NCBI RefSeq assembly: GCF_001457595.1
Contig: NZ_LN831039.1
Location: 5,730,001-5,762,000 of the forward strand
DNA from: Mycolicibacterium smegmatis
GTDB taxonomy: Bacteria; Actinomycetota; Actinomycetes; Mycobacteriales; Mycobacteriaceae
Length of the DNA: 32,000 nt
Direction: 5' to 3'
Below are positions 2,684 through 22,665 of this stretch, one piece after another. A program made the position numbers and the translations under genes. The notes below the pieces were generated by a model. It saw nothing but the letters and a program-made list of their open reading frames with translations. It had not been told where the DNA came from and ran no database searches. The first letter of the stretch is position 1; each line of letters starts with the position of its first letter.

Positions 2684-5059
2684 CTATCTCCACACGCGCC
2701 GTTCCTCGCCCAGCACGCGCCCCTGCACCCACCACAGCACCTCGATCAGCGCGGCCCCGGCCAGCCCGATACCGAGGGCCACCGATGTGACCTTCATATT
2801 GGTGGGATCCAGCATGAACAGTTCCTGCGCCAGCGGGATCGAGAAGATCAGGACGTACGCCAGCATCGAGCACGCGACCAGCAAAACGCGCCACCACTGA
2901 TACGGCCGGGCCACCACCGCGAGCACCCACAGCGACGACGCCAGCAACGTGATGAGCGCCGCGGTGGACGCCTGCGTCTGCTCGACGGGCGTGGCCTCAC
3001 GGCCCTGGTACGCCACGAGATAGGACACGAACGTCGCGGTGCCGACCACCAGGCCCGACGGCAGCGCCGCCGTCATCACGCGACGCACGAACCCCGTCTT
3101 GGCGCGCTCGTTGTTGGGCGCGAGCGACAGGATGAACGCCGGGATGCCGATGGTGAACCACGCCGCGATGGTGACGTGGATCGGCTGGAACGGGAACAAC
3201 AGCGGATCCGTGCCGAAGATCTCGGCCGACAGGCCGCCGATGCCGACCAGGATCGCCAGAAGCACCGAGTACACGGTCTTGGTGAGGAACAGGTTGGAGA
3301 CCCGCTCGATGTTGCCGATCACGCGCCTGCCCTCGCCCACCACGTACGGCAGCGTCGCGAACTTGTTGTCCAGCAGCACGATCTGCGCGACCGCGCGTGA
3401 CGCGGAACTACCCGAGCCCATCGCGACGCCGATGTCGGCGTCCTTGAGGGCCAGCACGTCGTTGACGCCGTCTCCGGTCATCGCGACCGTGTGCCCGCGC
3501 GACTGCAGGGCATGCACCATGGCACGCTTCTGATCGGGGCGCACCCGCCCGAATGTGGTGCACTCCTCCAGCGTCTCGGCGAGTTCCTCGGGCTGTTCGG
3601 GCAGACGCCTGGCGTCCATGGTCTCGCCGTGCAGGCCGAGTTTGCCGGCCACCGCGCCCACCGACACCGCGTTGTCACCCGAGATGACCTTGACCGAGAC
3701 GTGTTGCGACGCGAAGTAGTCGAGCGTGTCCCCCGCGTCGGGCCGGATCCGCTGCTCGAGCACCACCAGCGCTGCGGGGGTGACCACACCCGGCGCGTCG
3801 GGCGCATCGACACTGCGGTCCGACGATCCCAGCAACAGCACCCGCAGACCCTGTGCGCCGATGCGTTCGGCCTCCTCGGCCACCGGGGACGCGGGGTCGA
3901 GCAGCACGTCGGGCGCACCGATCACCCAGTTGCCGTGCTCGCCGTAGGACGTGCCGCTCCATTTGGTGGCCGACTTGAACGGCGCGGTCGCGGTCGCGGA
4001 CCACCCCGGCGGCGTCTGGTAGGCCTCGGCGATGGCGGCCATGCTCGCGTTGGGCCGTGCGTCGTCGGACGCCAACTGGGCCAGCACATCAGCGACGTGG
4101 CCCTCGGTGAGGGACTTGAGATCGCTGACACGCATGCCGTTCTCGGTGAGCGTGCCGGTCTTGTCCGCGCACACCACGTCGACGCGTGCGAGGCCCTCGA
4201 TCGCGGGCAACTCGTTGACCAGACACTGACGCCGCCCGAGCCGCACCACGCCGACCGCGAACGCGATCGACGTCATGAGCACCAGGCCCTCGGGCACCAT
4301 CGGCACCAGCGCCCCGACCATGCGCAGCACGGCCTCGCGCCATCCGGCGTCGGTGGTGAACAACTGCGTGTAGATGGTCAGCAGGCCCGCGGGCACCAGC
4401 AGGTAGGTGATGAACTGCAGGATCTTGTTGATGCCGTTGCGCAGTTCGGATTTCACCAGCGTGAACTTGGAGGCCTCCTCGGCGAGCTTGGCCGCGTACG
4501 CCTCGCGGCCCACCTTGGTGGCGCGGTACGCACCGCTGCCCGCGACGACGAAGCTGCCGGACATGACGGGATCGCCCGCGTCCTTGGCGATGGGATCGGC
4601 CTCGCCGGTGAGCAGCGACTCGTCGACCTCGAGGTTGGTCTCCTCGACCACCTCGCCGTCCACCACGATCTGATCGCCGGGACCCAACTCGATGATGTCG
4701 TCGAGCACGACCTCGCTGGGCAGCACGGCCCTGGTCCCCGACTGCCTGCGCACCGTGGGCTTGGCCTGCCCCACGATCGCGAGCTTGTCCAGCGTCTGCT
4801 TGGCGCGGATCTCCTGGATGATGCCGATCGCGCTGTTGGCGATGATGAGCAACCCGAACGCGCCGTTGATCACCGAACCGGTCGACAGCACGATGACGAA
4901 CAGCACACCGAGGATCGCGTTGATGCGCGTGAACACGTTGGCACGCACGATCTCGGACACCGTGCGCGCGGCGCGGGTCGGGACGTCGTTTGTCTTGCCC
5001 TCGGCGATCCGCTGTGCGACCTCGGCATCGGTGAGGCCGGCGGCAGCCATCGTCGTCAT
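2684..5059 (-). CDS. ctpE: P-type cation-transporting ATPase, CtpE-type (Ca2+/metal)
   Basis: 791 aa with the P-type motifs LTGEADP (TGE), the DKTGTLT phosphorylation site and [22 protein letters not shown] (hinge). It has multiple TM segments. Its size and synteny (beta-lactamase-like upstream, Rv0909/Rv0910-like downstream) match M. tuberculosis ctpE (Rv0908). Confidence 0.9.
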
Positions 5060-14479: not shown

Positions 14480-16486
14480 TCAGACTTCGATCGGGGGCCG
14501 CAGGCGGTCCATGGTGTACTGCCGGTTTCGTCTGGCGGCCCACGCACTGCCTGCCAGTGATACCGCGAGCAGGCCCGTGAGCACCACGATCGCGATCCAC
14601 AACCGCGAGTCGACACCGCCCACGATCACCTGCCGAAGACCGTTGACGGCGTAGGTCATCGGGTCGACGGGGTGCAGGATCTGGAACGGTTTGGCCGTGG
14701 TCTCGACGGGATAGATGCCGCCCGCGGACACGAGCTGCAGCATCAGGAACGCCAGGGTGACGACGCGGCCCACCGACACCCCGAACAGGGCATTGAACGC
14801 CTGGATGAGCGCGAGGAACGTCGCCGCGACGAGGATCAGGAACCCGACCGTGGCGAGCGGGTACTTCGCCTGCAGACCGACGCCGAAGTGGACCACGACG
14901 TACATCACCACGACCTGGCACACCGCGATCAGCAGGCCGGGCCAGTAGGACGCCAGCACGACGCGCAGCGCGCCGAGGCCGTTGACGACGGGCCGGGTCT
15001 GCAAGGGCTTCAACAGCATCCAGATGATCAGCGCGCCGATGAACAACGCCAGCGGCAGGAAGAACGGGGCAAACCCGGTGCCGAACGTGACCGCGGGGTT
15101 GTGGGTCTCGATGTCCAGCGCGACGGGCGCGGACAGGGTCCGGGCGACCTCGGTGCGCTGCTGCGGGGTCCACGACGGCACCTGGGTCGACCCGTCGCGC
15201 AGCGCGGTGGCCAACTGCCGGCTGCCCGTCTCGAGCTTCTCGGTGCCCGCGGCGAGTTCGTTTGCGCCGTTGGACAGTTGACGTCCACCGTTGGTCAGCT
15301 GCACGAGCCCGCTGTTGAGGGCCTGGGCCCCGCTGTTGAGCTGTTGGGCACCGTCGCGCAGCTTGACGACGTCGGCGCGCAGACCGCCGTTGAGGGCCTT
15401 GGTGATGAACGTGCGCATCTTGCTGTTGGGATCGCCGAGTTCGTTCTCAAGCTCGGCCGCGCTGTCGCGCAACTTGATCAGGCCGTCGTCGGTGGTGGGG
15501 TCGATACCGCGCGAGGTCAGGATCCGGTGGGCCCCGGCCAGGAACTCGCCGGTGTCGCGGGCCGTGGGGTCGGGGCTGTTGCGCAGGAAGTTGACGGCCT
15601 GGTCGACGATCGCGGCGGCCTGCGCCTGATCGATGTTGAGCGCCGCGATGCGATCGGTCGTCGAGCGCACGGCACCCGACAGGCGCTGTGCGGCACGGCC
15701 GACCTCGTCGGGATCGAGGCCGAGATCGCCGACACGGTCGAGCACGTGCAGCAGCGGATCGGTGGCGGTGGTGACGGCCGTCGACAACTGACGCGTGCCC
15801 GCGGCGAGCTGCGCCGAACCGTCGCGCGCGGTCACCAGACCGGCGGTCAGCGCGTCGGCGCCCGAGGCCAGGCGTTGCGCGCCGTCGTTGGCCGCGGCGT
15901 TGCCGTCGGCGAGTTGCTGGGCGCCGTCGGCGGCCTTGATCAGGCCCTCACCGGCGTCGGTGAGCCCCGTGAGCACCGTGCCGACCGTGCGCTCGCCGAT
16001 CCGGGCGTTGATCTGGTTGATCACCTCACGCGCGGCGTTCTGCCCGATGATCGAGCCCAGGTAGTTGTTGGCGTCGTTGAACGTGAAGCGCAGCGTGGCC
16101 TGCTGCGGCGAGTCACCCGACGGCGACGCGATGGCCTCGCTGAAGTCCTCGGGCAGCGTGATCGAGAAGTAGTACCTGCCGCTGGACACACCGTCGGCGG
16201 CCTCGTCGGCCGAGACCCGGTGAAGCTGCAACTCCCCCGAGTCGACCAGGGCGTCGGACACCTCCTGGCCCGCGTTGAGCCGCTCGCCCTGCGCGACGGC
16301 ACCCTTGTCCTCGTTGACCAGGGCGACCGGGACCTTGTCGACCTCGTTGAACGGGTTCCAGAACGCCCACAGGTACATCGCGCCGTACAGCAGCGGCATG
16401 AAGATCACGATGACCAGCGCGATGCGTGGCATGGCGCCGCGGGAGAACCGCTTGAAATCGGTGCCGAGAGACATTCCGGCGAGCAC
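14480..16486 (-). CDS. YhgE/Pip-domain membrane protein (ABC-2-type permease-like)
   Basis: 668 aa. An N-terminal TM segment is followed by a large extracytoplasmic helical domain with reiterated x-x-x-L-x-x-G heptads (GAQQLADGNAAANDGAQRLASGADALTAGL..., GAQQLNSGAQALNSGLVQLTNGGRQLSNGANELAAG) and a C-terminal bundle of about 5 TM segments. GTG start at 16486; an alternative ATG is at 16474. Confidence 0.85.
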   Translation of the reverse strand: MLAGMSLGTDFKRFSRGAMPRIALVIVIFMPLLYGAMYLWAFWNPFNEVDKVPVALVNEDKGAVAQGERLNAGQEVSDALVDSGELQLHRVSADEAADGVSSGRYYFSITLPEDFSEAIASPSGDSPQQATLRFTFNDANNYLGSIIGQNAAREVINQINARIGERTVGTVLTGLTDAGEGLIKAADGAQQLADGNAAANDGAQRLASGADALTAGLVTARDGSAQLAAGTRQLSTAVTTATDPLLHVLDRVGDLGLDPDEVGRAAQRLSGAVRSTTDRIAALNIDQAQAAAIVDQAVNFLRNSPDPTARDTGEFLAGAHRILTSRGIDPTTDDGLIKLRDSAAELENELGDPNSKMRTFITKALNGGLRADVVKLRDGAQQLNSGAQALNSGLVQLTNGGRQLSNGANELAAGTEKLETGSRQLATALRDGSTQVPSWTPQQRTEVARTLSAPVALDIETHNPAVTFGTGFAPFFLPLALFIGALIIWMLLKPLQTRPVVNGLGALRVVLASYWPGLLIAVCQVVVMYVVVHFGVGLQAKYPLATVGFLILVAATFLALIQAFNALFGVSVGRVVTLAFLMLQLVSAGGIYPVETTAKPFQILHPVDPMTYAVNGLRQVIVGGVDSRLWIAIVVLTGLLAVSLAGSAWAARRNRQYTMDRLRPPIEV

Positions 16487-16488
16487 GG

Positions 16489-17217
16489 CTACTTCTCACC
16501 CTTCTGTGCTGAGGCCAGCTCGGCCGGTGTGGTGTTCGGTACCGCGATGTGGGTCACGGCAGGGTTGCTCACCGGGTTGACCGTGGCGGTGACGACGGTT
16601 TGCTGCTCGCCGAGCGCGATCAGGCGTTCTGCGAGCAGTTCGCGGTTGCGGTCGTCGGTGACGTGGTCGAAATCGCCGACCACGAGCAGCGGCGGTCTCG
16701 ACGTGTTGGCCAGCGCGATCCGCAGCAGGACCCGGTCGAGTTCGGTGAGTTCGTCGAAGTACTCACCCAGCGGAGGCAGGGGCAGGTCACCGAACACCGG
16801 GCCGCACAGTGCGGCGAGGTCGTCGGCACCGGCACGCGGCACGCGCCGGTACCACGGCGCGTCCCACCGGCGCTGCTCGGTGATGACGTCGGCCACGGTC
16901 ACCGACTCGGGGACGGCGTCGATGTCCTCCACCGCCGCGACTGCCGAGATGTCGAAGATGTCCTTGGCGCGGGTGCGGCCGAGCACCGTCACCTCGCCGG
17001 ACTGCGGTTTCATCCGCCCGGCCAGCGTGAGCAGCAGCGCGGTGCGGCCCGCACCCGACGGCGCCACCAGCGCGGTCACGCCGCCTTCTGCGATGTCGAG
17101 GTCGACGGGCCCGTACACCGGGCCGAACGGCCCGCGCATCGTGATCTCCCGCGCGGTGATCGCCGGCGGTTTTTGCTCGTCGGCGTCCGGATCAGGCTCG
17201 GCAGTTAGCTGAGGCAT
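16489..17217 (-). CDS. ABC-transporter ATPase-like protein with degenerate catalytic motifs
   Basis: 242 aa with an NBD-like layout. Walker A is APSGAGRT (Arg instead of Lys, codon 17044-17046). LTELD stands where LSGGQ is expected. The Walker B region is LLVVGDFD (16666-16689) instead of hhhhDE. Its stop is 2 nt from the yhgE/pip start. Confidence 0.75.
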   Translation of the reverse strand: MPQLTAEPDPDADEQKPPAITAREITMRGPFGPVYGPVDLDIAEGGVTALVAPSGAGRTALLLTLAGRMKPQSGEVTVLGRTRAKDIFDISAVAAVEDIDAVPESVTVADVITEQRRWDAPWYRRVPRAGADDLAALCGPVFGDLPLPPLGEYFDELTELDRVLLRIALANTSRPPLLVVGDFDHVTDDRNRELLAERLIALGEQQTVVTATVNPVSNPAVTHIAVPNTTPAELASAQKGEK

Positions 17218-17380
17218 GCGTCAATCTCATCACACGCGTCACGCTGTCGCGCACAGGCGAGCACATGTCGCGCGTCCTGCCGGTTCCTGTGTGAATGCCG
17301 CGGACTTGCGGTCCACTGGCACAACCCATTTGGGGACCGGTTTCCGACAGCCGTGAAACTCAGTTGCTCGGCACCGCATG

Positions 17381-17386
17381 TACAGT
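17381..17386 (+). promoter_or_regulatory. candidate -10 hexamer (TACAGT) for the M-box transcript
   Basis: It fits the mycobacterial TANNNT pattern and lies 15 nt upstream of the first aptamer base. No convincing -35 element was seen. Confidence 0.3.
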
Positions 17387-17400
17387 GTCAAATGAAAACC

Positions 17401-17568
17401 GCGCTTCGTTAGGTGAGGCTCCTACACGAACACAGGCCACTGATCCGACGACGTCGAGAGACGCCCAGGGTTAGGACAGATCTTCCCGGCCTAAGGGATG
17501 ATCCGAAGTGGCTTCCCACCTCAAGGTGGGACACGTCGTGCAGTGCCAAAGCTCTGATGAGGAAGTGC
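17401..17568 (+). promoter_or_regulatory. M-box (ykoK leader) Mg2+-sensing riboswitch aptamer
   Basis: It contains the near-invariant M-box strings CUUCGUUAGGUGAGGCUCCU (5' side), AGAGACGC, UAAGG and CAGUGCCAAAGCUCUGAUGA (3' side). These are closed by P1 GCGCUUC/GAAGUGC. The length of about 168 nt is comparable to the Bacillus subtilis mgtE M-box. Confidence 0.88.
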
Positions 17569-17680
17569 TCGCGCCACTCGGCGCGTCCGGCCATGTGCCC
17601 GACTTCCTCTTCAGCGCGCATCTGACGGTTGCGTGCAGAACAGCTGCGCCCCGTGCGCCCGGTAGCGAGGAGGTGACGAC

Positions 17681-17764
17681 ATGACGTCATGTGACGGCCC
17701 GTATCCCAGTCCGATTCGAAAACGTTTGTTTGTGAACACCTCTCCGCTTTCGGTGACGTCCTAG
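17681..17764 (+). CDS. 27-codon ORF MTSCDGPYPSPIRKRLFVNTSPLSVTS (leader peptide or N-terminal stub of the lost mgtA)
   Basis: The ATG is preceded by a strong SD, AGGAGG (17668-17673), with a 7-nt spacer. The SD is complementary to an upstream anti-SD in the riboswitch expression platform. The ORF is too short for the ORF track. Confidence 0.35.
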   Translation: MTSCDGPYPSPIRKRLFVNTSPLSVTS

Positions 17765-17862
17765 GTCGACGCGGAGAGCTCCACAGTGAGATGGAGAATC
17801 CGATGCAGCACAACACCTTTCTTCGTCATGCCCGCAGCGCGGTCAAACGCCCCATCGCGTGG

Positions 17863-18104
17863 ATCCACACACGTGCGTCGCTGACCCCGCAGGAGCGGCA
17901 CAACCTGAGGATGAGCAACACCCCGGTGGCGGTCCTGACCGCGTCCCTGGGAGGCGGCTCGCACACGGCCCGTTAGTTTCACACCCGCGCCACCACCAAC
18001 CACCGACGTACTTCGGCTGGCTGGTCGCGACGCTGACCTGCTACTGCGTGGTCGTCCAGACCGTCAAGACCGTCTACATCCGCAGGTTCGGCCGGTGGTT
18101 CTGA
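17863..18104 (+). pseudogene. mgtA: 3' relic of an mgtA-type Mg2+-importing P-type ATPase
   Basis: The last 35 codons (18000-18104, PPTYFGWLVATLTCYCVVVQTVKTVYIRRFGRWF) align with the enterobacterial MgtA C-terminus (LPLSYFPWLIAILVGYMTLTQLVKGFYSRRYGWQ). Upstream, in another frame, IHTR...PVAVLTASL lies at the distance expected for the IRTR...TM9 region, which implies a frameshift near 17975. No P-type ATPase core (DKTGT, GDGxND) is present. Confidence 0.6.
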
Positions 18105-18114
18105 GCGTCTGACG

Positions 18115-18153
18115 TGCCACCGGCTGCGCCGGGGGGCGGCGCAGCCGGTGGCA
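18115..18153 (+). terminator. perfect 16-17 bp GC-rich hairpin after the mgtA relic
   Basis: TGCCACCGGCTGCGCC-ggggggc-GGCGCAGCCGGTGGCA begins 11 nt after the relic stop codon (TGA 18102-18104). It has no T-tract. Its 3' arm abuts the ATG at 18153. Confidence 0.5.
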
Positions 18154-18857
18154 TGCTGGGATCTGTGGAACCTCTGTGGCACTTCGCAGGGAACTTCTGG
18201 TGGTTGATCTTCCCGCTCGGAGGAATGATCGGCGGCGGTATCAGGGCTGTGGCCGCCGCCAATGAACGGCGCGCCGAACGACGCCTGGAGCGCTACCGCA
18301 TCAAGCAGCAGACCAAGGTCGAGATGGCGCGGGCGGCCGAGGCCGTGAGAGCCGCCGACGCCGGCTACGAACGTGAACTCACGAAGGTGCTGCAACGCCA
18401 CGACCACACCAACGCCCGCTGGCTCGACTACGAGATCGACGTCGCGAAGCTCCTGGACTTCCCGTTGATGACGGACATGCGCGATCCGCTGACCATCGCG
18501 TTCCACAAGGCTCGCGGCCGCGCCGATCTGCTGCGGCCCGACAACCCGGCCGACATCCTGGGTGACCGGCCCGCGCAACTCGAATACCGCGACGCCGTGC
18601 ACGAATACGTCACGGCGTTCGACATCGCCGAGACCGAGGCGATCCGCAGGCGCCGCAGCGACTTCTCGGCCGAGGCGCAGGAACGCCTGGCCCGTGCCCA
18701 ACAGCTGCTGCGCCTCGCGTCCGACGAGGGCGCCACACCGCAGGAACGCCAGAGCGCCTACACGCGGGCGCAGAGAGAACTCGACGGGCTCATCGTGCTG
18801 CCTGCGACCACCCGCGCGAGCATCGAACGCAAGATCCTCGGCGAACTCGAGGCCTGA
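18153..18857 (+). CDS. hypothetical membrane-anchored protein (one N-terminal TM, long charged helical C-terminal part)
   Basis: The ORF is open over 18114..18857. A TM-like segment (FWWLIFPLGGMIGGGIRAVAAA) is followed by Arg/Glu-rich helices, and codon usage is typical of the window. The start is uncertain (GTG 18114 inside the hairpin, ATG 18153 or GTG 18165). I recognise no family. Confidence 0.65.
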   Translation: MLGSVEPLWHFAGNFWWLIFPLGGMIGGGIRAVAAANERRAERRLERYRIKQQTKVEMARAAEAVRAADAGYERELTKVLQRHDHTNARWLDYEIDVAKLLDFPLMTDMRDPLTIAFHKARGRADLLRPDNPADILGDRPAQLEYRDAVHEYVTAFDIAETEAIRRRRSDFSAEAQERLARAQQLLRLASDEGATPQERQSAYTRAQRELDGLIVLPATTRASIERKILGELEA

Positions 18858-19366: not shown

Positions 19367-20980
19367 TTACGCTTCGAGCCCGAGAAGTGCGACGGTCTCC
19401 TCGCGCATCTGCACCTTGCGGATCTTGCCCGTGACCGTCATGGGGAACTCGTCGACGACGTGCACGTAGCGCGGGATCTTGTAGTGCGCGAGCTTGCCCG
19501 ACGCGAACTCGCGGACCTTGTCGGCGTCCAGCGGCGGACGGCCGGGTTTCATCCGGATCCACGCGCAGATCTCCTCGCCGTAGCGCTCGTCGGGTACGCC
19601 GATCACCTGAGCGTCGTCGATGTCGGGATGCGTGTACAGGAATTCCTCGATCTCGCGCGGGTAGATGTTCTCGCCGCCGCGGATCACCATGTCCTTGATG
19701 CGGCCGACGATGGTGCAGTACCCGTCCTCACGCATGACCGCGAGATCCCCGGTGTGCATCCAGCCGTCGGCGTCGACGGCCTCACGGGTCTTCTCGTCGT
19801 CGTTCCAGTATCCGAGCATCACCGAATACCCACGCGTGCAGAACTCGCCGGGTTGGCCGCGCTCGACGGTCTCTCCCGTGTCGGGATCGATGATCTTGAT
19901 CTCGACATGCGGGTGGGCGCGGCCGATGGTCGCGGTGCGCCGGTCCAGATCGTCGTCGATCAGGGTCTGGCACGACACCGGCGAGGTCTCGGTCATGCCG
20001 TAACAGATCGCGACCTCGGCCATGTGCATATCGGCCACAACACGTTTCATCACCTCGATCGGGCACACCGAGCCGGCCATGATGCCCGTGCGCAGCGACG
20101 ACAGGTCGAAGTTCGCGAAATCCGGATGCCCGAGCATCGCGATGAACATCGTCGGGACCCCGTACAGACCCGTGCACTTCTCGGATTCCACAGCCGACAA
20201 CGTGATCCCGGGATCGAACCCGGGTGCCGGGATCACGATCGTGGTGCCGTGCGACACCGCACCGAGTGTGCCCATCACCATGCCGAAGCAGTGGTAGAAC
20301 GGCGGCACGATGCACAACCGGTCGTCGGGCCCCAACGCGATGAGTTCGGTGACGAAGAACCCGTTGTTGAGGATGTTGCGGTGCGACAGCGTCGCTCCCT
20401 TGGGGAAACCCGTTGTGCCCGAGGTGTACTGGATGTTGATCGGATCGGTGTTGGCCAGCGTGGCCATCCGCTCGCGCAACGCCGCGTCGTCGACCTGGTT
20501 GGCGCGCAACCGATCCCAGTCGTCGTTGTCCAGGAAGACGACGTGCAGCAGGTCCGGGCACTCGGGCCGCACCTCGGCGATCATCGAAGCGTAGTCCGAG
20601 GTCTTGAACGACGATGCCGAGACCAGCGTGCGCACCCCCGACTGCCGCAGCACATAGGCGACCTCGTGCGTGCGGTACGCGGGGTTGATGTTGACCAGGA
20701 TGGCCCCGACCTTGGCGGCCGCGAACTGCGTCATGATCCACTCGGCGCAGTTCGGCGCCCAGATGCCGACGCGGTCGCCCTTGTCGACGCCGAGCGCCAT
20801 CAAACCCCGTGCGGTGGCGTCGATCTCGTCGTTGAGCTCGGCGTAGGTCCAGCGGCGGCCGGTGGCCACCTCGACCAGCGCCTCATGTTCCGGATAGGTG
20901 GCCGCGATGCGCTCGAAGTTGGCCCCGATGGTCTCTTCGAGGACCGGTGCACCGGTGGGTCCCGCGTCGTATGACTTCAT
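19367..20980 (-). CDS. AMP-dependent acyl-CoA synthetase (FadD35/ACSF2-like)
   Basis: 537 aa with the motifs [38 protein letters not shown] and a terminal MTVTGKIRK. Its ATG overlaps the upstream stop as ATGA (20977-20980). Confidence 0.9.
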
Positions 20981-22665
20981 CCCAGCAGATCCTCGTATCG
21001 GTATTCGGTAGGAATCTCCTTGCCCGTCTGATGTGCCTCGTCCTCGCGCTTGCGCAGTTCGACGCGACGGATCTTGCCGGAGATGGTCTTGGGCAGGTCG
21101 AAGAACTCGACGCGTCGCACCTTGAGGTACGGCGCCAGGTGATCACGCGCGTACTCCATGACCGCTTTCGCGGTGTCGGCGTTGGGTTCCCACCCTTCGG
21201 CCAGCGCGACGTACGCCTTGGGCACGGCGAGGCGGGTGTCGTCGGGCTGGGGCACCACGGCGGCTTCGACCACCGCAGGATGCTCGATCAGCACGCTCTC
21301 CAACTCGAACGGCGACACCTTGTAGTCGCTGGACTTGAACACGTCGTCGGTGCGGCCGATGTAGGTGATGTAGCCTTCGGCGTCGCGCGATGCGACGTCG
21401 CCGGTGTGGTAGTAGCCACCGGCCATGACAGCCGCGTTGCGTTCCGGATCGCCGAGGTAACCGGTCATCAGGTTGCGCGGACGCTTGCTCAGGTCCAGGC
21501 AGATCTCGCCCTCGTCGGCGGGCTCGCCGGTGATCGGGTCGACCAGCACCACCGGCACACCGGGCATGGGCCTGCCCATCGAGCCCGGCTTCACCGGCTG
21601 CCCTGGGGTGTTGCCGACCTGCAGGGTGGTCTCGGTCTGGCCGAACCCGTCGCGGATGGTCAGCCCCCAGGCCTTCTCGACCTGGGCGATCACATCGGGG
21701 TTGAGCGGCTCACCGGCGCCGAGGATCTCGCGCAGCCCCTCGGGCCTGGCGCCCAGGTCGGCCTGGATCAGCATGCGCCACACCGTGGGCGGTGCGCAGA
21801 ACGTGTTGACTTTGGCGCGGCGCAGCTGGTTCAGCAGCGCCGGGGCGTCGAAGCGGCGGTAGTTGTAGACGAAGATCGTCGCCTCGGCGATCCACGGCGC
21901 GAAAAAGCAGCTCCACGCGTGTTTGGCCCAGCCGGGCGAGCTGATCGCCAGGTGCACGTCGCCGGGCTTCACGCCGATCCACGCCATCGTCGACAGATGC
22001 CCGACGGGGTAGCTGACCTGCGAATGCTCGACCAGCTTGGGCTTGCTGGTGGTGCCGGAGGTGAAGTAGATGAGCATGGTGTCGTCGACCGTGGTGGCAC
22101 TGGCGAACCGCTGCGGCTGCACCTCGGACGCGTCGGAGTAGGCGTGCCAGCCCTCCACGGCCTCGCCCACCACGATCCGCCCGTAGTCACCTTCGACCGC
22201 CGCGAACTTGTCGGTGTCGGACGCGTTCGCGATCACGAACCGCGCGCCGCCGCGCGCGATGCGGTCCGCCAGATCGGCCGGGCCGAGCGCCCCGGTGGTC
22301 GGCATGATGACCGCGCCGAGCTTGGCGATGCCGAGCATCGCCTCCCACAACTCGACCTGGTTGCCGAGCATGAGGATCACCCGGTCGCCCTTGCCGACGC
22401 CGAGAGCCGCCAACCACGTCGCGACCCGGTCGGAGCGCTCCGCCATGTCGGCGAAACTCACCTGCGTCTCGGCGCCGTCCTCCTCCACGATCCACAGCGC
22501 GGGACGGTCGTTGCCCCTGGCGATCGCGTCGAACCAGTCGATCGCCCAGTTGAAAGTGCCGGTCAGCTCCGGAAACGCGAATGTCTCGACGGCCTTGTCA
22601 TAGTCGGCGATGGTCGCGACGAGCTGATCACGGGCACTACGGTAGAGATCGGCGTTACCACTCAT
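20977..22665 (-). CDS. AMP-dependent acyl-CoA synthetase (medium-chain/ACSM-like)
   Basis: 562 aa with the motifs [25 protein letters not shown] and a terminal [14 protein letters not shown]. It is the first gene of a two-ligase operon. Confidence 0.9.

Follow-up and report, generated by a model that had tools for sequence, protein, structure and literature searches.

An M-box leader and two conserved small open reading frames at a Mycolicibacterium smegmatis locus that has lost mgtA

The closest described counterpart of the locus analysed here is the M-box (Mg2+) riboswitch of pe20 in Mycobacterium tuberculosis. There, a design composed of a first Shine-Dalgarno sequence (SD1), an anti-Shine-Dalgarno sequence (anti-SD), a second Shine-Dalgarno sequence (SD2) and a short upstream open reading frame (uORF), termed uORF2, has been shown experimentally, as has Rho-dependent premature termination (D'Halluin et al., RNA 2026, PMC12810186). 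In the M-box leaders of pe20 and rv1535, uORF2 is Rv1805A and 'Rv1535A', respectively; Rv1805A is well expressed and has a conserved N-terminus with a proline at position 7 (Pro7) (PMC12810186). The single M-box of M. smegmatis is listed in the same study as 'mgtE-type' (PMC12810186), and our literature search found nothing on the M. smegmatis locus beyond that listing. We analysed this locus in a window of 32,000 nucleotides from strain mc2 155 (NZ_LN831039.1, positions 5,730,001 to 5,762,000, forward strand; coordinates below are those of the window). In it, the M-box is followed by a 27-codon uORF, a 57-codon gene that we call ORF57, and a 3' relic of the transporter gene mgtA.

We conclude that this is probably an ancestral leader module, responsive to Mg2+, that has kept control of two small open reading frames (ORFs) after deletion of mgtA. 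The aptamer family, the existence of an M-box in M. smegmatis (PMC12810186), the uORF2 concept and the annotation of an mgtA fragment were already known. We add the deletion junction, the fixation of the deletion throughout the species, the description of ORF57 as a constrained gene of a widespread family that is usually linked to an M-box, and an argument for why the riboswitch has been retained.

An mgtA relic behind an intact M-box

The features that carry this argument are as follows.

17398..17571, + strand: M-box (Mg2+) riboswitch aptamer, RF00380, full model
17681..17764, + strand: 27-codon uORF, MTSCDGPYPSPIRKRLFVNTSPLSVTS, identical in length and frame in 13 species
17803..17976, + strand: ORF57, a 57-codon gene for a basic small protein (pI 12), defined by dN/dS, homologues and synteny
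17977..17999, + strand: deletion junction, filler without alignable homology to either side; homology on the left ends at 17976
18000..18104, + strand: mgtA 3' relic of 34 codons and a stop, corresponding to MgtA residues 873-906 (the tail and the final part of the transmembrane helix before it, which is the last), from tblastn

The M-box is intact, as an earlier note on this DNA had held. A cmscan search against Rfam gave one match in the whole window, to RF00380 at 17398-17571 on the + strand, with 136.7 bits against a gathering score of 44, an E-value of 5.8e-31 and model positions 1-169 of 169 aligned. This score is inside the range of the M-boxes of eight relatives (135-144 bits), and the covariance-model score over the full model places the element in the M-box family. 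The low G+C content that the note had remarked on is also there (0.58-0.62 over 17200-17900 versus 0.65-0.77 in the flanks).

A word-indexed protein search with an 81-residue ORF (17859-18104) that includes the relic matched only itself, and relatives were therefore reached through DNA. Scanning one genome per species with a three-anchor M-box pattern gave 102 loci, 12 of them mycobacterial and most of the rest from Firmicutes. The mycobacterial loci come from M. peregrinum (two), M. septicum, M. porcinum (two), M. setense, M. senegalense, M. syngnathidarum and four further species. M. smegmatis is absent from the 102 although the pattern matches the window exactly, presumably because the sequence was masked or a different genome represents the species.

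All 12 relatives are syntenic with the window. A continuous blastn alignment runs from a divergent gene for an ATP-binding cassette (ABC) transporter ATPase (16413-17217) through the leader to 17960-17976. The uORF and ORF57 are downstream of the aptamer in 12 of 12 relatives, ahead of mgtA where it is present, and both are kept in M. smegmatis. In five loci, an ORF of 904-924 residues begins 540-650 nt after the aptamer; three further loci have a long ORF at the same start that runs off the end of the retrieved block. The 906-residue ORF of Mycobacterium sp. 48b is MgtA (NF011702, 1651 bits; TIGR01524, 1377 bits versus a cut-off of 611). Relatives with a complete M-box-mgtA arrangement at the same locus, which the earlier note had anticipated, thus number five.

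Homology resumes after the junction at 18007 in DNA and at 18000 in protein, and about 2.8 kb has been lost in M. smegmatis: the spacer of roughly 100-150 nt after ORF57 together with mgtA codons 1-872. With the intact 906-residue MgtA as query, tblastn aligned 18000-18101 with residues 873-906 at 73.5% identity (E 1e-14), the sole significant match in the region; relaxing the search to E<=10 with word size 2 brought up no other. In five relatives, the last ~100 nt of mgtA and the hairpin behind the gene align with the relic and its hairpin at 81-84% DNA identity, and synteny holds on both flanks. Collinear 3' homology at a syntenic locus makes this a relic of mgtA. The actuator, phosphorylation and nucleotide-binding domains and the set of ten transmembrane helices of a full-length MgtA are missing, as only residues 873-906 are encoded, and the relic is non-functional.

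The earlier note's MgtA C-terminus is therefore real: the 81-residue ORF matches E. coli MgtA residues 848-896 (PDB 8uy7; phmmer, E 0.0011), in addition to the tblastn match. This ORF is 100% identical to a GenBank protein of M. smegmatis MC2 155 and is annotated there as a coding sequence (CDS), 'Magnesium-translocating P-type ATPase' (81 residues, 17859-18104), which overlaps ORF57 out of frame. The N-terminal 39 codons of the CDS are that overlap, and only its last 34 codons derive from mgtA. On sequence grounds we regard the 81-residue 'MgtA' as an annotation artefact that needs correction. Searches of Pfam and NCBIfam with the 81-, 61-, 57- and 27-residue ORFs and with a ~230-residue downstream gene gave no informative match. 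Elsewhere in the window, a 791-residue ORF (2684-5059, - strand) is 26% identical to MgtA over 566 residues (tblastn, E 2e-31); its sequence identifies it as another P-type ATPase, not MgtA.

The note had also read an IHTR...PVAVLTASL stretch as MgtA, which would make the 57-codon region a frameshifted remnant of transmembrane helices 9-10 and the relic about 80 codons long. There is a superficial likeness (IHTR to IRTR, and PVAVLT), its distance from the stop is roughly what would be expected, and the phmmer alignment reaches E. coli MgtA residue 848, but in the frame of the 81-residue ORF, not in that of ORF57. The stretch itself has no match to MgtA in the PDB at E<=10 and none to mycobacterial MgtA at E<=10 with word size 2. 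At the DNA level it aligns with the leader that precedes intact mgtA, and it is the core of ORF57, which is in frame, is under purifying selection, and precedes intact mgtA in relatives and an Nramp gene elsewhere. The conserved ORF57 of the relatives and the tblastn result refute the remnant reading, to which we give almost no credence. A resemblance of this kind to a C-terminus, inside a leader region, can mislead. Of what the note proposed, the M-box, the MgtA C-terminus, the base composition, the 27-codon ORF (at 17681-17764), the deletion and the collinear 3' end all stand. The frameshift, the length of ~80 codons (there are 34, in frame) and the lack of any full-length gene in the ~540 nt after the aptamer do not, since these nucleotides contain two conserved reading frames, the 57-codon gene and the 27-codon ORF; nor is this a riboswitch without a gene, as both have been kept.

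Four relatives have the module without mgtA or a detectable relic: M. senegalense, Mycobacterium sp. URHD0025, Mycolicibacterium sp. 050232 and M. syngnathidarum. The next feature after the module is a convergent membrane-protein gene in M. senegalense, and an asparaginase gene is nearby in the other three. A 400-nt contig, NZ_JAVREM010000401.1 (locus L088, 'Streptomyces millisiae'), shares 88% identity with the M-box leader of mycobacteria along 390 nt and is probably mycobacterial contamination of a Streptomyces assembly.

ORF57 and its family

ORF57 begins with ATG at 17803 behind a Shine-Dalgarno sequence, GGAGA, at 17793-17797, and ends with TAG at 17974-17976. Its start and length are identical in 12 of 13 species (55 codons in the other one), and the residues PIAWIHTRASLTPQERHNLRMSNTPVAVLTASLGGGSH are almost unchanged. 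The ratio of nonsynonymous to synonymous substitution rates (dN/dS; summed pairwise Nei-Gojobori) is 0.19 overall and 0.04 for codons 17-53, and at least 1 in the other two frames. Third codon positions hold 18 of the 25 variable columns of the core. Because frame and length are conserved and dN/dS is low in its own frame only, we take ORF57 to be a protein-coding gene.

Gene finders have already called the 57-residue product ('hypothetical protein [Mycolicibacterium smegmatis]') and its homologues in many genomes. The family shares the motif LTPQER(H/A)NL...TP.AV.TASLGG, or in its wider form R-x-x-L-T-P-Q-E-R-(A/H)-N-L ... P-x-A-V-x-T-A-S-L-G-G. When 1.84 billion representative proteins were searched with a profile, 43 members came up at E<=0.001, of which 41 are 45-107 residues long, and a word-indexed search found 756 clusters at E<=1. 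ORF57 scores 83 bits (E 9e-24) against the hidden Markov model (HMM) of the family, and it thus combines a profile match with purifying selection at the protein level. The named members are from Mycobacterium, Mycolicibacterium, Gordonia, Rhodococcus and Nocardia, and nearly all are labelled 'hypothetical'. Rv1535 is not named among the 120 best family matches listed. ORF57 and Rv1535 can be likened by position only, each starting ~400 nt from the start of its leader.

The family usually follows an M-box. Among the loci of the pattern scan, its HMM matches all 12 from mycobacteria, and no match comes from the other 90, among them loci of Firmicutes, Chloroflexota and Amycolatopsis. Nine distant family members were inspected in their genomes, and an M-box precedes seven of them by 200-300 nt: those of Gordonia jinhuaensis, a Mycobacterium metagenome-assembled genome, two metagenomic contigs, M. 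celatum, M. kyorinense and Rhodococcus maanshanensis. The two without one are in G. polyisoprenivorans and a Nocardia. All six of the seven that were checked have a uORF2-like ORF between the M-box and the family gene (e.g., MSPSDSPYP...), and an Nramp transporter is the next gene after the ORF57 homologue in M. celatum, M. kyorinense and one contig. R. maanshanensis (locus L128) has two divergent M-boxes ~230 nt apart (3122-3295 on the - strand and 3522-3695 on the + strand). One points towards a gene for a P-type ATPase and the other towards the ORF57-family gene, after which come a 289-residue gene and a major facilitator superfamily (MFS) gene.

We suggest, tentatively and with somewhat more doubt than assurance, that the ORF57 family consists of M-box-regulated small proteins of the Mycobacteriales with a role of their own in homeostasis of Mg2+ or other divalent cations. 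Such a role would explain why the riboswitch has outlived the transporter in M. smegmatis and in several other species. As part of the same tentative suggestion, the 57-residue protein might, for example, modulate transporters or ribosomes at low Mg2+.

Alternatively, ORF57 could be a regulatory leader ORF whose translation tunes expression of the transporter and whose product has no function of its own. It does lie between the riboswitch and transporter genes, its conserved motif is near the C-terminus, as in some arrest peptides, and the product is small, with a low-confidence three-helix AlphaFold model (predicted local distance difference test, pLDDT, 62; predicted template modelling score, pTM, 0.27). 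However, the core is invariant where no transporter follows (M. smegmatis, M. senegalense, Gordonia jinhuaensis), no M-box accompanies the gene in G. polyisoprenivorans and a Nocardia, and the conservation of its amino acids spans genera. We therefore think it unlikely that ORF57 acts in this way only.

The leader and its constraint since the deletion

The deletion is present in all 12 M. smegmatis strain or sample loci examined, which are 99.7-100% identical and include genomes that differ downstream. In some of these (L104, L105, L106, L109, L113 and L114) the locus is followed by genes for a copper amine oxidase and an amino-acid permease, and in others (L103, L107, L108, L111, L112 and the window) by the two AMP-binding (FadD-like) genes of mc2 155 (19367-22665).

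To gauge constraint on the M. smegmatis branch, we counted private changes, that is, substitutions found only in M. smegmatis, per column conserved among relatives, and compared each element with the relic by Fisher's test.

M-box: 3 of 164 columns (p 0.0009 versus relic)
Expression platform: 4 of 73 (p 0.18)
27-codon uORF: 10 of 70 (p 0.81)
ORF57: 6 of 138 (p 0.038)
mgtA relic: 11 of 90 (reference)
Promoter block: 9 of 32 (p 0.051)

The relic has drifted, with 8 of its 11 private changes at codon positions 1-2. Because the aptamer and ORF57 have fewer private changes than the relic on the same branch, both have stayed constrained there. Two of the three changes in the M-box make up a compensatory G-C to A-U replacement (17480/17502), the third (17541) giving an A.C mismatch, and none of the private substitutions in ORF57 alters an amino acid of the conserved core. 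Constraint looks weaker in the promoter and towards the C-terminal end of the uORF.

These counts bear on the possibility that the M-box and leader are functionless leftovers of a recent deletion, intact for lack of time. The cargo transporter is gone, private substitution rates are raised in the -35-like hexamer and in the uORF, the leader of one strain is interrupted by an insertion sequence, and the low diversity among strains means that fixation within the species is by itself no proof of great age. However, the relic has accumulated changes that the aptamer and ORF57 have not, four other species keep the module without mgtA, and ORF57 homologues lie behind M-boxes with other or no cargo in several other genera. 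We consider simple decay improbable. The very recent deletion that the earlier note had offered as one explanation is itself unlikely, because all 12 M. smegmatis loci share the deletion and because of the private substitutions in the relic. The note's other suggestion, that the leader serves another role through a small ORF, comes close to our interpretation, except that the role appears to be ancestral rather than newly acquired.

The leader contains the following further elements.

17364..17393, + strand: probable promoter of the M-box transcript, a block kept just upstream of the aptamer in 12 relatives
17559..17567, + strand: SD1, or anti-anti-SD, GAGGAAGTG, overlapping the 3' strand of helix P1; conserved in 13 species
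17602..17615, + strand: pyrimidine-rich (CU-rich) anti-SD, ACTTCCTCTTCAGC, conserved in relatives
17667..17675, + strand: SD2 of the 27-codon uORF, GAGGAGGTG, near-invariant in 13 Mycolicibacterium loci and found also in Gordonia and slow-growing Mycobacterium loci

The likely promoter has TTGCTC at the -35-like position in M. smegmatis (17364-17369) where the 12 relatives keep TTGACA, and TACAGT (17381-17386) and TCAAAT (17388-17393) are candidate -10 hexamers. A consensus scan over 17150-18300 called neither a sigma-70-type promoter nor a terminator in M. smegmatis, and the promoter of its leader may have been weakened or re-tuned.

SD1, the anti-SD and SD2 are all present and conserved at the locus. 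SD1 is complementary to 17602-17617 (inverted repeat I4, 16 nt, 88% complementary), and the two are also paired in the predicted fold. In minimum-free-energy folds, the CU tract pairs with the 3' strand of P1 when that strand is free and with SD2 when it is withheld. In a duplex-energy test on 15 loci, the SD1:anti-SD duplex was about 2 standard deviations better than shuffled controls, and in 13 of the 15, SD1 and the uORF initiation region find their best duplex partners in overlapping parts of the CU tract. The terminator scan called no intrinsic terminator after the aptamer, and the expression platform, as far as its sequence tells, looks translational.

A nearly invariant GCGAGGAGGTGA (SD2) precedes the 27-codon uORF, which reads MTSSDSPYPSPIRKRLSIN... 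in relatives and MTSCDGPYPSPIRKRLFVN... in M. smegmatis. Its dN/dS is 0.42, versus about 1 in the other two frames (summed pairwise Nei-Gojobori). The peptide of the window has Pro7, and Pro7 within the pattern M-[TS]-x-[SG]-D-x-P is found in 13 Mycolicibacterium loci, five slow-growing or uncultured Mycobacterium-like loci and one Gordonia locus; an M-x-x-S/G-D-x-P N-terminus with Pro7 is likewise seen at the Gordonia, M. celatum and M. kyorinense loci. The uORF therefore has the properties described for uORF2/Rv1805A, namely a short ORF after SD2 behind an M-box, with a conserved N-terminus and Pro7 (PMC12810186).

Two further observations concern the region between the uORF and ORF57. In the window, CTCTCCGC (17740-17747, in the 3' end of the uORF) pairs perfectly over 8 bp with GCGGAGAG (17771-17778, upstream of ORF57), and both tracts are largely conserved as sequence in relatives. 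This pairing could couple translation of the uORF to expression of ORF57. In addition, 12 of 12 relatives have a spacer of ~57 nt after the uORF stop, including a GC-rich hairpin, CCACCCCGGACACCCGCGGTGG, that is missing from M. smegmatis at 17764/17765.

Beyond the relic lie two more features.

18115..18153, + strand: 17-bp perfect hairpin after the former mgtA stop codon (inverted repeat I1)
~18168-18857, + strand: gene of ~230 residues, with a hydrophobic segment at the N-terminus, FWWLIFPLGGMIGGGI, and without a match in Pfam or NCBIfam

The hairpin at 18115-18153 has no U-tract and was not called by the terminator scan. It is kept in relatives with compensatory changes (GGCTG/CAGCC versus GACCG/CGGTC) and is possibly the terminator of the operon.

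Could the leader have been re-purposed for the 230-residue gene, which the deletion brought near? The gene now starts ~60 nt past the relic stop, the intervening hairpin, lacking a U-tract, may not terminate transcription, and the same gene follows mgtA in M. porcinum. Against this, the compensatory changes suggest that the hairpin is a functional terminator or processing signal, and M. septicum, Mycobacterium sp. 48b and M. senegalense lack the gene at this place, which shows that it is no consistent part of the operon; nor does it belong to a known Pfam or NCBIfam family. Control of the gene by the leader is thus possible, though unsupported by conservation, and we regard re-purposing as quite unlikely.

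The retained module and its relation to known systems

We read the locus as the M. smegmatis version of a module that is conserved in the Mycobacteriales, ordered as promoter, M-box, SD1/anti-SD/SD2 platform, 27-codon uORF, 57-codon gene and divalent-cation transporter, the transporter being mgtA in the M. fortuitum/smegmatis group. A deletion of ~2.8 kb in the M. smegmatis lineage left 34 codons, the stop and the downstream hairpin. At high Mg2+, the aptamer would close P1 and sequester SD1, and the CU-rich anti-SD would then pair with SD2, leaving the uORF untranslated; transcription would end early, probably through Rho. At low Mg2+, P1 would open and SD1 would capture the anti-SD, allowing translation of the uORF and transcription through the 57-codon gene. 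This transcript would extend into mgtA in the relatives and only through the relic to the hairpin in M. smegmatis. The riboswitch has probably been retained because the two small ORFs, above all the strongly constrained 57-residue protein, are still under its control.

Several observations weigh against a module that is still at work in this way. The -35-like hexamer of M. smegmatis is degraded. Per conserved column, private changes are as frequent in the uORF as in the relic (10/70 versus 11/90), which may mean that constraint is relaxed in part of the module. One M. smegmatis strain, CP089233.1, tolerates an insertion sequence (IS) between the uORF and ORF57. In the duplex-energy test, anti-SD:SD2 was no more stable than duplexes with shuffled spacers, and this putative pairing draws on conservation and on the M. 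tuberculosis precedent. The likeness of the 27-codon ORF to uORF2/Rv1805A is a likeness to the published description. Lastly, the four species without a relic may never have had mgtA at this locus, rather than having lost it.

The IS in CP089233.1 (locus L113, 3835-4958) is ~1.1 kb long, encodes a DDE_3 transposase on the minus strand, and sits exactly at the uORF stop codon. Bases 17761-17764 flank it on both sides, an apparent target-site duplication, and ORF57 of this strain is thereby cut off from its M-box and uORF.

What the small ORFs downstream of M-boxes do in mycobacteria (uORF2/Rv1805A and its adjoining genes) matters for adaptation of M. tuberculosis to Mg2+. Selection on the module after loss of the adjacent transporter argues that the small products act on their own, and M. 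smegmatis is a non-pathogenic and genetically tractable host in which these products could be tested without a co-transcribed transporter. If the small protein does have a role of its own, M. smegmatis would provide a natural background, free of an adjacent mgtA, for study of the M-box, uORF2 and small-protein module.

Enterobacteria have several small proteins (MgtS, MgtR, MgtU and MntS) that are co-regulated with Mg2+ or Mn2+ transporters. ORF57 differs from these in being basic and not evidently membrane-spanning; the likeness would lie in co-regulation with cation transporters only, and no sequence similarity is expected.

The M-box of ykoK (mgtE) in B. subtilis belongs to the same aptamer family, RF00380, to which the M. 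smegmatis element is a full-length match. In B. subtilis the aptamer is followed by an intrinsic terminator, whereas none follows that of M. smegmatis, where the platform appears to be translational. The mgtA leader of enterobacteria is also a Mg2+-responsive RNA with a short proline-containing ORF (mgtL) ahead of mgtA, as in the relatives of M. smegmatis. That leader combines the proline-rich mgtL with Rho-dependent termination, and its aptamer class is unrelated to the M-box. The N-terminus of the uORF (M-T-S-x-D-x-P-Y-P) is loosely like that of MgtL (MEPDPT...; bioRxiv 10.1101/2021.02.02.429294), a resemblance that we treat as a lead only. The idea of an MgtL-like ribosome-destabilising peptide was set aside, likewise as a lead, because in Mycolicibacterium two or three of the first six residues are D, E or P, fewer than the four of six in the published criterion for ribosome-destabilising sequences.

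The pe20 and rv1535 leaders of M. tuberculosis resemble the M. smegmatis locus most fully. They share a Shine-Dalgarno-like sequence at the 3' end of the aptamer, a CU-rich anti-SD near the middle of the platform, a strongly conserved SD2, and a short uORF with Pro7 followed by a small gene ~400 nt from the start of the transcript. They differ in that mgtA is lacking there, whereas at the M. smegmatis locus mgtA was the cargo and has since been deleted. The M. smegmatis locus is known from its sequence, and here the small gene behind the uORF, ORF57, emerges as a constrained and widespread family.

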